Positions 26,547 through 29,765 of a stretch of DNA of 64,000 nucleotides are shown piece after piece. The stretch comes from Candidatus Latescibacterota bacterium. Its GTDB lineage: Bacteria; Latescibacterota; UBA2968; GCA-2709665. The notes beneath the pieces were generated by a model, which saw only the letters and a program-made list of their open reading frames with translations, ran no database searches and was not told the origin of the DNA. The first letter of the stretch is position 1; each line of letters opens with the position of its first letter. The DNA lies in NCBI GenBank assembly GCA_965248435.1, contig OZ252100.1:1600001-1664000 (forward strand). The letters are read 5' to 3'. The translations under genes and the position numbers were made by a program.

Positions 26547-26604
26547 TCAACCTCCAAGACGTGACAGTCAGTTGCCGCTTCGCATGCGTCCCAGTAAATT
26601 CACA

Positions 26605-27003
26605 CTACCGCTTGGAAAACTGGAAGCGACGCCGAGCGCCGGGCTGTCCCGGCTTCTTTCGCTCCACGACCCGCGGATCACGCGTCAGCAGGCCTGCCGA
26701 GCGCAGGGGTTTTCTCAACTCCTCATCGATGGCCACTAACCCCCTCGCGATCCCGAGACGAATCGCACCCGCCTGGCCGCTCAAGCCGCCACCTTTTGCA
26801 CGGGCGACAATGTCGTAGGTCCCCGTTGCTTCGGTAACGCCAAGCGGCTGTTCAATGATCATGACGAGGGTTTCCCGCCTCAGATAATCCAGGGCCTCTT
26901 TACCGTTGATGGTGATCTTTCCAGACCCCTCGAATAGCTCAACGTTCGCTGTGGCACTCTTTCGGCGGCCTGTCGCCGAAACAATCGCTTTGCTCAAACT
27001 CAC
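26605..27003 (-). CDS. rpsI: 30S ribosomal protein S9
   Basis: [32 protein letters not shown]. Confidence 0.98.
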
Positions 27004-27455
27004 CTCCGCTCAAAAGCATTCGAACCCACATCGATCGTCTCTGGGTTCTGAGCCTGATGTGGATGGTCGGGCCCGGCATAGATCCTTATCTTTTTCATCA
27101 TCTTTCGACCTAGCCGGTTCTTCGGAAGCATCCCTTTTACAGCGTGCTGGATCACGAGCTCCGGACGCTTCTCGAGCAGTTCACTCAAGCTTCGAGTCTT
27201 GAGACCGCTCGGGTAGCCACTATAGCTGGTATAAACCTTCTGGTCCGGTTTGTTGTTGCCTGTCACCTTTATGCTGGATGCGTTGATCACGACAACGTGG
27301 TCGCCTGTATCAACGTGAGGCGTGTAGATCGGTTTGTGTTTCCCTCTCAGAATCTTGGCCACCTCACTCGCAAACCGCCCGAGGACCTTTCCGTTCGCGT
27401 CGGCGATGTACCATTTTCGTTCCACTTCCTCTTTCTTGGCGCTTAGTGTCTTCAT
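27000..27455 (-). CDS. rplM: 50S ribosomal protein L13
   Basis: [45 protein letters not shown] before ATG 27455. Confidence 0.98.
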
Positions 27456-27504
27456 CTGACCAGATCTTCTCCTCGAATGCAGGTTAGGGCAAGTTGAGCC
27501 TTTA

Positions 27505-27532
27505 AAAATACGATTCCGGCCCTGTTTGTCAA
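27505..27532 (-). promoter_or_regulatory. Probable proximal promoter of the rplM operon
   Basis: TTGACA-16 nt-TATTTT on the minus strand. Confidence 0.5.
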
Positions 27533-27555
27533 GCAGTAAGAGACCCGAACCTGTT

Positions 27556-27614
27556 GAAAATAAAAGGCGTCGCACGGCGGGAATCCGGGTGTCCGGTCCA
27601 TCTCCGTGCGACGC
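27556..27614 (-). terminator. Intrinsic terminator upstream of rplM
   Basis: 11-bp stem GCGTCGCACGG/CCGTGCGACGC with a large loop, followed by CTTTTATTTTC. Confidence 0.65.
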
Positions 27615-27630
27615 ATAACGTTCGACAGCA

Positions 27631-27770
27631 TCCATCTCGCGGTCTGTGAAACTTAAAGACCGCCCAAAAGGACGGATTGCGTGCCGTTCGGTGACTGTTT
27701 AGATTCGCCAGGTGCGCTGCCAAACGAGATGGAATCCCGCTCCTGGCGAGCGCATCTAACTACAGCCACC
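27631..27770 (-). ncRNA. Candidate structured RNA or leader
   Basis: Long hairpin GGTGGCTG/CAGTCACC, TTAGAT/ATCTAA, TCGCCAGG/CCTGGCGA. Loop TCCATCTCG is complementary to downstream CGAGATGGA. Extra hairpin GCGGTCT/AGACCGC. Confidence 0.5.
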
Positions 27771-27791
27771 TCCACTGGTCTCATCGCTCAT
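27756..27791 (-). CDS. Candidate 11-aa peptide MSDETSGGGCS
   Basis: 10-nt SD AAAGGAGGTG 5 nt before the ATG, directly downstream of a consensus-like promoter. Confidence 0.5.
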   Translation of the reverse strand: MSDETSGGGCS

Positions 27792-27819
27792 TCGACCACC
27801 TCCTTTCCGTGTAACCGCA

Positions 27820-27848
27820 AATATAGGTGATCGTTTAGGGCAAGTCAA
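27820..27848 (-). promoter_or_regulatory. sigma70-type promoter for the small-ORF/RNA unit
   Basis: TTGACT-17 nt-TATATT, overlapping the dppC stop codon. Confidence 0.6.
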
Positions 27849-28768
27849 CGCCATTTGCCCACACTTACGTAGGCCTGCATTCTGGGGTCGAAGGCATCCC
27901 GTAGTCCATCCCCGAGAAGGTTAAAGGCCAGCACCGTCAGGAAGATAGCGAGGCCGGGGAAGGTCAGGACCCAGGGCGCGCTCAGGATCAATTCCCGGCC
28001 ACCGCTCAACATGGCCCCCCACTCCGGTACGGGGGGCTGCGCTCCCAGCCCGAGGAAACTTAGCCCTGCGGCGTCCAGGATCGCGGTTGCCAGCCCGAGC
28101 GTGGACTGAACGATCAGAGGCGTCAGACAGTTCGGGAGGAGGGCAACCCGCAGGATCCGGAAGTCACCCGCGCCCAGCGCTCTGGCCGCCTGGACATAGT
28201 CCGTTTCTCTCACCGAAAGCGCCGATGCGCGGGCCAGCCGGGCATACTGCGGGATAGCGACGATGCCCACGGCCAGCATGGCGTTCTCCAGGCCGGGGCC
28301 GAGGACGGAGACGATCCCGATGGCCAGCAGAATGCTCGGAAAGGCGAGCATCAGATCCATGGCCCGCATCAATACCTGATCCAGCGGGCCGCCCCAATAG
28401 CCTGCGGAAAGTCCGATGGCCGTCCCGAACACCAGGGAAATCATCACAGCCACCACGCCCACCCGGAGTGAGATCCTGGCTCCGTGGAGGACCCGGCTGA
28501 GGATGTCCCTTCCGAAGTCGTCGGTGCCGAACGGGTGCGTCAACGAGGGGGCCGAAAGGCGATTGTAAAGATCCTGGGCGAGGGGGTCGCCAGGGGAAAT
28601 GATCGGGGCCGCCGCAGCCAGCAGCAGGAAGGTGATCAACAGCAGACCCCCAAGCACTGCGAGCCGGTTACCTTTCAGTCTAAGCCAGATCTTCTTCGAC
28701 TGGCCGACGGAAAGGCGCGCGTTAGGCAGGCGATTCGTGCTGCCGGCGACAGATTCATCTGGCGCCAT
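27845..28768 (-). CDS. dppC: Dipeptide/oligopeptide ABC permease C
   Basis: HPFGTDDFGRD, GARISL, YVQAARALGA, SFLGLGAQPP.PEWG, NLLGDGLRDAFDP. Confidence 0.9.
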   Translation of the reverse strand: MAPDESVAGSTNRLPNARLSVGQSKKIWLRLKGNRLAVLGGLLLITFLLLAAAAPIISPGDPLAQDLYNRLSAPSLTHPFGTDDFGRDILSRVLHGARISLRVGVVAVMISLVFGTAIGLSAGYWGGPLDQVLMRAMDLMLAFPSILLAIGIVSVLGPGLENAMLAVGIVAIPQYARLARASALSVRETDYVQAARALGAGDFRILRVALLPNCLTPLIVQSTLGLATAILDAAGLSFLGLGAQPPVPEWGAMLSGGRELILSAPWVLTFPGLAIFLTVLAFNLLGDGLRDAFDPRMQAYVSVGKWR

Positions 28769-29765
28769 ACTTGATCCTCGGATCCAGCCAGGCGTAGAAG
28801 AGGTCCGTCAGCAGGTTGATGATCACGAACGTCGTAGCGATAAGCAGCACGCCTCCTTGGATGGCTCGAAAATCGCGCGCGTAGACCGCCAGGAGCAGCC
28901 AGCGACCCACGCCGGGCCAGGCGAAAATGGTCTCGGTAATCACCGCACCCCCAAGCAAGTAGCCGAACTGCAAACTGATCACGGTAAGGATCGGAATGAA
29001 CGCATTCTTCATGCCGTGACGCAGGACCACGGCACGCTCCGAGAGCCCCTTCGCCCACGCCGTACGCACATAGTCCTCCCGCAACACCTCGAGCATGCTG
29101 GAACGGGTCATCCTCGCGATCACGGCGGCGGGAACCGTCCCCAGCGTCACTGCGGGCAGGACCAGGTGCCACAGGGCATCGCCGAATGCTCGAACGTCAC
29201 CGACGAGCAAGCTGTCCACCAGGTAGAGCCCGGTTGCGGAGGGGATAAACAGGGTGCTGCTGATCCGCCCGGAGACCGGAAAGAGCCCCGCGGCAAGCGC
29301 CAGTGTCATGATAAGAATCAGCCCCAACCAGAAGATGGGCATCGAAACGCCCATGAGTGAAGCGGTCATCCCAAGATAGTCGAGCAGAGACCCACGTCGA
29401 ACGGCGGACAGCAGACCCGCCGAGATCCCCAGAATCATCGCCAGTGCCATGCTCGCCAGGGTGAGTTCAATCGTAGCAGGGAATCGGCTCAGAAGCTCAA
29501 CGGAAACCCTCTCGTGAGTCTTGATCGACCGGCCCAAATCCCCCTCGAGCAGGCCCGCGAGGTAGCGCCCGAACTGGATGTGGAGGGGGCGGTCCAGCCC
29601 CAGTTGGTGTCGCAGGGCCTCGACGCTGCTCGCGCTTGCGCGCTCACCCAGCATCACCTGTGCCGGGTCCCCGGGTACCAGATGGACCATCAGGAACACC
29701 AGCACGCTGATTCCCAGGAGGGTGGGAATCAAGAGCAGCAGACGTTTGAGCAGGAAGGCGCGCAC
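28755..29765 (-). CDS. dppB: Dipeptide/oligopeptide ABC permease B
   Basis: PGDPA, GDLGRS, RFPATIEL, RSSMLEVL.EDYVRTA, ETIFAWPG, LDPRI. Confidence 0.9.
   Translation of the reverse strand: MRAFLLKRLLLLIPTLLGISVLVFLMVHLVPGDPAQVMLGERASASSVEALRHQLGLDRPLHIQFGRYLAGLLEGDLGRSIKTHERVSVELLSRFPATIELTLASMALAMILGISAGLLSAVRRGSLLDYLGMTASLMGVSMPIFWLGLILIMTLALAAGLFPVSGRISSTLFIPSATGLYLVDSLLVGDVRAFGDALWHLVLPAVTLGTVPAAVIARMTRSSMLEVLREDYVRTAWAKGLSERAVVLRHGMKNAFIPILTVISLQFGYLLGGAVITETIFAWPGVGRWLLLAVYARDFRAIQGGVLLIATTFVIINLLTDLFYAWLDPRIKYGAR

Follow-up and report, generated by a model that had tools for sequence, protein, structure and literature searches.

Does the segment ahead of the ribosomal-protein gene rplM in a Candidatus Latescibacterota genome hold a leader that governs rplM, a gene for a micropeptide, or a small RNA (sRNA) in its own right? 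We examined this question in a 64,000-nucleotide (nt) window of the genome (contig OZ252100.1, positions 1,600,001 to 1,664,000), the minus strand of which carries a promoter, a mini open reading frame (mini-ORF), a large hairpin and a terminator at this place. With moderate confidence, we read the locus as a free-standing, single-copy, structured sRNA of about 256 nt, of the type that Rfam calls Ms_IGR-5 (RF02471), which would be operated by the ribosome, translation of the mini-ORF melting the helices of the RNA core. An earlier note on this DNA had located the promoter, a Shine-Dalgarno (SD) sequence, the ORF, an ATG after its stop, a second SD, the hairpin loop, two repeats complementary to it and the terminator; all of these were found in place. 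Of the two readings in that note, an independent sRNA with a micropeptide ORF comes close to the evidence, in that the element has its own promoter and terminator, is single-copy and keeps ORF start, frame and stop across phyla. The parts of the sRNA, in window coordinates, are as follows.

27820-27848, minus strand: sRNA promoter, with -35 hexamer TTGACT (27848-27843), 17-nt spacer and -10 hexamer TATATT (27825-27820); 10 of 12 positions match the consensus
27557-27812, minus strand: predicted transcript of about 256 nt, its start placed at A 27812 from the -10 spacing and its end placed within the T-rich tail
27806-27797, minus strand: SD sequence AAAGGAGGTG, read in the sequence
27794-27807, minus strand: extended SD, here SD1, of 14 nt, able to pair, with one G-U, with the 16S rRNA 3' tail
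27756-27791, minus strand: mini-ORF MSDETSGGGCS*, 11 codons plus TAG, from translation and from conservation in the order
27776-27798, minus strand: helix P1, 27798-27794 with 27780-27776, start codon within the loop (RNAalifold, pairs 17-21 with 35-39)
27773-27811, minus strand: helix P0, CAC 27811-27809 with GTG 27775-27773, assigned by homology
27773-27766, minus strand: SD2, a second SD-like sequence GGAGGTGG, in the 5' arm of the long hairpin
27690-27770, minus strand: central hairpin domain (RNAalifold)
27770-27762 with 27698-27690, minus strand: helix P2, 9 pairs, burying GGAGGTGG and the last ORF codons
27731-27726, minus strand: apical loop CATCTC, beyond the inner helices of the central hairpin
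27623-27686, minus strand: third domain, a branched local hairpin (RNAalifold) that holds the first GAGATGGA copy
27638-27631 and 27604-27597, minus strand: the two GAGATGGA copies, read in the sequence
27557-27614, minus strand: intrinsic terminator, with an 11-bp outer stem (27614-27604 with 27577-27567) and an inner hairpin (RNAalifold)
27604-27599, minus strand: terminator-internal GAGATG, complementary to the apical loop
27565-27557, minus strand: T-rich tail of the terminator

The earlier note had recognized no known family here. At Rfam gathering thresholds this stands, with 0 matches in the whole window; with permissive filters, however, RF02471 (Ms_IGR-5, "Actinobacteria sRNA") matched 27668-27812 at 23.4 bits and over its full model (positions 1-184 of 184). 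This was the single match in the entire genome (5.67 Mb, E <= 1), with E = 0.0059. RF02471 scores formed a graded continuum from Mycolicibacterium down to the order to which the window belongs, with Acidobacteriota- and Zixibacteria-labelled copies in between at 42-50 bits:

Mycolicibacterium copy: 185 bits
Blastocatellia-labelled copy: 49.6 bits
Two copies from the phylum of genome G169: 43.8 and 42.5 bits
Zixibacteria-labelled copy: 42.5 bits
Copies from the window's order: 41.2, 39.1, 30.5, 27.1, 24.3 and 23.4 bits

The motif order of Ms_IGR-5 was also found beyond the parts used as a search pattern, namely P0, an in-frame start in the P1 loop, a fixed stop and a terminal compound hairpin. 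Like Ms_IGR-5, the window's RNA has, in the same order, a 5' ACAC, an extended SD, a hairpin whose loop contains the start codon, a second GAGGTGGCTG strand, the stop, CTGGCGAAT, CAGTCACC and a compound terminator, and it is free-standing with one copy per genome. Unlike Ms_IGR-5, it lies outside Actinomycetota, hence beyond the taxonomic range that Rfam gives (Actinobacteria), and below the gathering score; its ORF is read in another frame (11 codons, ...SGGGCS*), P0 is cut to 3 bp in its order, and there is an extra domain of about 65 nt (27686-27623). The CATCTC/GAGATG complement between loop and terminator is absent from actinobacterial copies, and linkage to rplM is a feature of most of the window's order. 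Judged by sequence, the window's sRNA is a diverged, sub-threshold member of Ms_IGR-5, a family first reported in Mycobacterium smegmatis by Li et al. 2013, according to the reference list of PMC8780764.

The element was traced through the window's order and into other phyla. By BLAST, it was present in 40 of 41 genomes, the window's own included, from two families of one order. R1, a covariance model built on the 5' core, gave a single strong match (50-59 bits) in 52 of the 53 genomes of the order, in which the sRNA is single-copy per genome; in the rest of the class, it gave only 21-28-bit matches in 8 of 79 genomes, which we treated as noise. Of 168 genomes of the phylum, 51 had the exact core pattern, every one of them from the window's order (20/21 and 30/31 genomes of its two families, plus the window's own genome); among those outside the order, it occurred in 0/115. 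Promoter hexamers, SD, ORF, hairpin and terminator were all kept in the alignments of relatives, both hexamers of the sRNA promoter in every aligned relative of the order.

Scanning 185,579 species genomes with the core pattern yielded at least 120 stretches, 80 of which were listed. Among the matches listed, the majority came from Actinomycetota, and others from metagenome-assembled genomes (MAGs) labelled Terriglobales, Blastocatellia and Zixibacteria, together with two Candidatus Latescibacterota-titled MAGs whose copies matched those of the window's order. In the phylum of G169 (a Terriglobales-titled genome), R1 gave a match at E <= 1e-5 in 15 of 151 genomes sampled, and in the phylum of G168 it did so in 73 of 151 (67/145 without six unpublished genomes). 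Ms_IGR-5 has been listed as an actinobacterial sRNA; its reach is shown here to go well beyond Actinomycetota, into a Latescibacterota-labelled order, the phylum of G169 and a Zixibacteria-labelled MAG, and the Rfam threshold misses these non-actinobacterial members. New here are this reach, the sub-threshold status of the copies outside Actinomycetota, a compensated change of reading frame and a tested link to rplM.

Conservation of the mini-ORF across these phyla was established by direct counts, which bear out the earlier claim of an SD-led ORF MSDETSGGGCS* at 27791-27756. In the window's order, an ATG 7 nt past GGAGG opens 11 codons that end in TAG in 33/33 distinct sequences. At all 80 loci listed from the pattern scan, a start 5-11 nt past AGGAGGTG opens a frame of 11-17 codons (ATG, GTG or TTG, with CTG in four, from Acidimicrobiia-labelled MAGs), and the frame always ends 14-15 nt past the start of GAGGTG, in TAG, TAA or TGA. 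A stricter count considered distinct sequences with a canonical ORF in three sets (order, pattern scan, covariance model). It returned 58/58 parsed sequences in the pattern-scan set (14 loci that the regular expression left unparsed are included in the 80/80 count) and 12/13 in the covariance-model set, which the pattern had not found and whose exception extends five codons further. Over all sets, a start 5-14 nt past the SD, 11-19 codons and one fixed stop were present in 103/104 distinct sequences, against 14/104 with an ORF in another frame that passes SD2 (2/33 in the order, 8/58 in the pattern set and 4/13 in the covariance-model set). The ORFs came in nine lengths (11 to 19 codons) and with each of the three stop codons. 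The start codon lies in the P1 loop, free of any pairing constraint, and the length of this loop varies by whole codons only.

The peptide itself is not shared. Outside the window's order it ends in ...E-V-A-x-x*, and within the order in ...S-G-G-G-C-S/R* (consensus M-x-[DE]-x-T-S-G-G-[GD]-C-[SR]), the order reading the same nucleotides one base over. Compared with the other phyla, the window's order lacks two nucleotides ahead of SD2 and one behind it; these length changes on either side of SD2 compensate, so that the frame stays open although the peptide changes. As frame and stop are kept while the peptide differs, selection appears to act on translation to the stop and not on the peptide; translation to a fixed stop thus seems to be conserved, and the peptide not. 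What is conserved, namely ribosome loading and a frame that stays open up to a fixed stop, and what is not, namely the peptide, point to a class of sRNA whose structure is operated by its own translation.

Directly after the mini-ORF stop, about 10 nt past SD2, stands an ATG (27755-27753, minus strand), which is GTG in 35 of 40 distinct relatives. The earlier note had started an 18-aa ORF at this ATG; the codon is present, but the ORF of 18 codons is not conserved and was rejected as a coding unit, its length varying between 7 and 97 codons across 40 distinct sequences. Termination-reinitiation at this codon is conceivable, with no product conserved.

The fold of the RNA was demonstrated both by its energy and by covariation. 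A 266-nt stretch folds at -110.9 kcal/mol, against -89.1 +/- 4.9 kcal/mol in shuffles (z = -4.4; 0/200 shuffles as good). For 28 sequences of the order, RNAalifold predicted 56 pairs, 19 of them with compensatory changes, making up P1, P2, the inner helices of the central hairpin (pairs 61-63/115-117, 72-75/111-114 and 77-79/107-109), the branched third domain and the compound terminator. Both-sided changes occurred in 10-13 sequences in the third domain (pairs 137-139/205-207, 143-144/200-201, 147-152/193-198 and 159-162/187-190). In the terminator (pairs 221-230/260-269 and 239-243/248-253), they affected 5 of the 10 outer pairs. The P1 pairs are invariant within the order, and the equivalent helix in other phyla has 81-94% of its cells paired. 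One of the 9 pairs of P2 appears within the order as G-C, G-U and A-U; across phyla, a best-complement search for the 3' strand of P2 (mean 6.3) did not beat its reversed-strand control (5.9), and A with T at position 6 in 8/10 cases is a hint only.

P0 was traced across phyla, where the 4 nt directly 5' of SD1 pair with the 4 nt directly 5' of SD2, with both-sided changes in three of the four pairs. Cells with both-sided changes numbered 40, compared with 10.3 +/- 2.5 in shuffles (0/500 reached 40), and slid controls collapsed. The 16 rows unpaired in this count are those of the window's order, in which the alignment register is shifted and only CAC/GTG is able to pair. Together, P0 and P1 close one hairpin, with SD1 bulged between the helices and the start codon in the P1 loop.

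SD1 was invariant in 69/69 aligned sequences, and its duplex with the 16S tail of this genome has a predicted energy of -26.4 kcal/mol, against -14.4 kcal/mol for that of the rplM ribosome-binding site. The SD1 extension of some copies in the G169 phylum is GGAGGTGATC, a perfect complement of the 16S tail. SD2, which the earlier note had rightly placed inside the ORF and partly buried in a hairpin of about 80 nt, lies in the 5' arm of 27770-27690. It ends 5-6 nt ahead of the last sense codon, a spacing that would let a terminating ribosome still hold SD2. The SD1 14-mer occurs 3 times in the 5.67 Mb of the genome, one of them antisense to the 16S gene itself. The only other site outside rRNA, G000:C1:5142108 (plus strand, beyond the window), lies 3 nt upstream of a 74-codon ORF whose product looks like a small hydrophobic protein.

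The two repeats downstream of the central hairpin fared differently as partners of its loop, both of which the earlier note had described as complementary to it. The first GAGATGGA copy was tried as a free loop partner and rejected, being a strand of a covarying local helix (pairs 147-152 with 193-198, 11-12 both-sided changes per pair). The GAGATG of the second copy, in the internal loop of the terminator, can form six standard or wobble pairs with the loop hexamer in 26 of 28 aligned sequences (counted by eye). A contact is favoured by a neighbouring pair that switches from C-G to A-U from one genus to another and by genus g9, from which both motifs are absent; it is disfavoured by L181, where changes go uncompensated, and by L002 and genus g6, where the neighbouring pair is missing. 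For this copy, a tertiary contact between loop and terminator is no more than possible. The 11-bp terminator with its U-rich tail, also part of the earlier description, was borne out by covariation of its outer pairs; a simple terminator scan had missed it, its loop being a compound hairpin of more than 8 nt.

From these parts, we infer how the sRNA may work. In the 5' hairpin, formed by P0 and P1, the loop would hold the start codon, and the sequence complementary to the 16S tail (14 nt) would bulge out unpaired. The ribosome would be the partner of the sRNA, and binding of a 30S subunit would open P1. The ORF passes along the 3' strand of P1, that of P0 and then the 5' strand of P2, the stop lying a few nucleotides beyond P2, so translation to the fixed stop would unzip P0, P1 and P2 and force the central domain to refold. 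Through RNA stability or exposure of the 3' domains, the conformation of the sRNA would report translation activity on it. Candidate sites for pairing with other RNAs or for protein binding are the CATCTC loop, which is conserved and single-stranded, and the 3' domains. In constrained folds, made in silico with either the ORF region or the stop-codon footprint forced single-stranded, refolding of the central domain costs 24-33 kcal/mol.

Signs of expression are consistent with a transcribed RNA. Thirteen RNA-library runs, from marine and seawater metagenomes, hold parts of 26600-28800, and four were examined: a contig of 340 nt spans 27460-27790, another of 190 nt holds the sRNA copy of a relative, and further contigs cover rplM and rpsI. 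Where contig cover is absent, as over the permease gene, this does not show that the DNA is silent. For the family, PMC8079986 describes Ms_IGR-5 as validated by RNA sequencing in S. lividans, PMC8780764 lists it as a small-RNA transcription unit in S. avermitilis, and PMC4974804 mentions ribosome-profiling (Ribo-seq) reads on it in M. abscessus and M. smegmatis.

Several observations weigh against the reading of a ribosome-operated Ms_IGR-5 sRNA. The window copy, at 23.4 bits, falls under the RF02471 gathering score of 45, and a literature search returned no function for the Ms_IGR-5 family. In G038, a complete genome of the order, the sRNA is split by an insertion element and is therefore dispensable there. 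P0 in the window's order consists of only 3 bp, which are invariant. The nucleotides of the ORF are constrained by RNA structure as well, because of which ORF conservation within the order proves little, and the argument rests on the comparison between phyla. Assembled contigs show presence only, not ends, strand or level, and DNA may contaminate RNA libraries; Ribo-seq footprints, again according to PMC4974804, are found on many classical non-coding RNAs.

A bolder form of the same idea, which we put forward tentatively and think unlikely, makes the RNA an ancient cross-phylum sensor with the ribosome as its ligand. Here, the 14-nt complement would capture a 30S subunit, and obligatory translation of the mini-ORF would flip the RNA between two folds and so report free translational capacity. 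The sequence of the peptide would be irrelevant, and SD2 would serve to hold the terminating ribosome at the fixed stop. If true, the position of such a sensor at the head of the rplM-rpsI-rpsB-...-frr cluster in the window's order would hint at a role in ribosome homeostasis.

Quite unlikely, in our judgement, is a micropeptide gene whose 11-residue peptide is the functional product and whose RNA structure only tunes synthesis. Its appeal lies in the conserved ORF, strong SD and start and stop codons, in the near-invariance of the C-terminal TSGGGC within the order and in a third codon that is GAT, GAA or GAC and thus always Asp or Glu. Yet the conserved residues are encoded by helix strands, the N-terminal residues vary freely, and all other phyla read the same nucleotides in another frame (...EVAxx*); about 190 nt of conserved, covarying RNA past the stop would also be left unexplained. 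SgrS/SgrT, RNAIII/hld and SR1/SR1P are dual-function sRNAs with a conserved, functional peptide and a known base-pairing seed. The window's sRNA resembles them in being short and in having a promoter and a terminator to itself, a small, putatively translated ORF and conserved structure; it differs in that its peptide is not conserved across lineages and its ORF runs through the structural core, not beside it.

We consider a purely non-coding sRNA, acting by base pairing or protein binding and with SD-like sequences and ORF as by-products of structure, to be very unlikely. Most ORF nucleotides are indeed strands of covarying helices, the peptide differs between the window's order and other phyla, Rfam files RF02471 as a small-RNA gene, and the footprints on non-coding RNAs noted above (PMC4974804) are common. 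By-products of structure would not explain why a start in an unconstrained loop is in frame and at the right SD spacing in 103/104 distinct sequences, against 14/104 for other frames, why this frame is kept through changes of loop length and nine ORF lengths, or why the stop stays at one position as TAG, TAA or TGA; nor would they explain the two compensating length changes that hold the frame open in the window's order.

Less probable still would be a 30S decoy, in which the exposed 14-nt complement titrates 30S subunits or the free 16S tail and binding, not translation, is the activity. The energy of the SD1 duplex relative to that of rplM, the rank of SD1 among the two strongest non-rRNA sites of the genome, its invariance in 69 aligned sequences and the perfect complement GGAGGTGATC in some copies from the phylum of G169 would all suit a decoy. 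It leaves the conserved frame and stop unexplained, however, and a single-copy sRNA would need ribosome-like abundance for titration.

The last rival is the one suggested by the neighbourhood. Upstream lie genes of an Opp/Dpp-type ATP-binding cassette (ABC) importer, with an SBP_bac_5 protein and two BPD_transp_1 permeases (Pfam), and downstream lie those for L13, S9, S2 and, further on, the ribosome recycling factor (RRF; Pfam). The OppC-like permease ORF ends at 27845, its stop codon overlapping with the sRNA's -35 hexamer (27843-27848, minus strand), and the promoter therefore stands at the very end of the transporter operon. Two features follow the sRNA.

27505-27532, minus strand: separate rplM promoter, TTGACA-16-TATTTT, outside the sRNA (promoter scan)
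27000-27455, minus strand: rplM (ribosomal protein L13), the downstream neighbour (Pfam Ribosomal_L13, E = 1.4e-46)

Promoter-like sites within 27000-28300 numbered 2, those of the sRNA and rplM, against 0.4 +/- 0.5 in shuffles. The promoter of its own that the earlier note had given rplM was confirmed at 27532-27505 and is kept in relatives, in which TTGACAA follows the terminator; the sRNA ends at this terminator, upstream of the rplM promoter. Of the order's 35 loci, 32 have a same-strand rplM beginning 323-543 nt downstream, one more stops at a contig end, and 2, in other genera, have no rplM downstream. Beyond the order, neighbours were read with a filter on GC content at third codon positions (GC3) and Pfam and were unrelated: a class IV aminotransferase, a THAP4-like heme-binding protein, a GNAT acetyltransferase, an M24 peptidase, a hydrolase, an OPT transporter, a 2-hydroxyacid dehydrogenase, NUDIX and FUR, three of the neighbours being convergent with the sRNA. 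S9 adjoins only the two loci of the window's order among the 80 listed pattern-scan loci, and neither S9 nor L13 was adjacent at any of the 78/78 listed loci from other phyla. Independence of the element from rplM was plain from these comparisons.

A leader-peptide attenuator, in which a ribosome on the mini-ORF decides whether the terminator forms and so gates read-through into rplM-rpsI-rpsB-...-frr, is the least probable reading and not supported, because neighbouring genes vary from phylum to phylum, a separate promoter precedes rplM and the terminator is retained when ribosome occupancy is imposed in silico (it persisted in 6/6 RNAs under both occupancy models, with no alternative antiterminator found in the constrained folds of the 6 RNAs). 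What speaks for it is the same-strand rplM at 32/35 loci of the order, the ribosomal and translational nature of the downstream genes, one RNA-library contig that crosses the terminator from 27790 to 27460 and the complement between the apical loop and terminator-internal sequence. Against these stand, besides the points just given, the approximately 140 nt between stop codon and terminator, the position of the conserved rplM promoter beyond the terminator, the loci without S9 or L13 in two genera of the order and among the 78 listed from other phyla, the convergent gene at several homologues and a peptide that has no conserved regulatory codon run. The earlier proposal of an attenuator for the rplM operon is accordingly not borne out; the sRNA is probably not a switch for the adjoining ribosomal-protein genes, and the element should be annotated neither as an rplM leader nor as a peptide gene.

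Leader-peptide attenuators such as trpL/rnTrpL of Sinorhizobium, whose attenuator-released RNA can act in trans according to PMC6614838, share with the window's sRNA a short ORF that remodels downstream RNA, followed by an intrinsic terminator. The sRNA differs from them in that its constrained folds gave no antiterminator, its ORF has no regulatory codons, the downstream gene has its own promoter and the neighbours elsewhere are unrelated. Ribosomal-protein leaders, among which Rfam has an L13 leader family, are alike in that the sRNA sits upstream of rplM-rpsI. No ribosomal-leader family matched within 27350-27950 at E <= 10, however, and, unlike such leaders, the sRNA terminates before the rplM promoter and occurs without rplM elsewhere.

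Some smaller observations concern individual genomes. At locus L034 (G038:C1:3073300-3076500, minus strand), the insertion that splits the sRNA of G038 is about 1.4 kb long, begins about 10 nt past the stop codon and carries a long ORF on the opposite strand that looks like a transposase. The 9 nt AGTTAGGTG stand at both junctions, and the half with promoter, SD and ORF is intact. A second, partial match to the 5' core was found at G026:C1:4613925-4613972 (BLAST E = 1e-4; 24.9 bits), and G030 and G084 also carry second weak matches; these may be fragments or other strong ribosome-binding sites. In most relatives, though not in the window, the 5' untranslated region of rplM contains a GAGAGGAGGTGA motif that is followed, some 45 nt ahead of the rplM start, by a conserved hairpin (L007:1850-1905, with equivalents in L003-L019 and several of L023-L036), which could be a separate leader of the L13 type.

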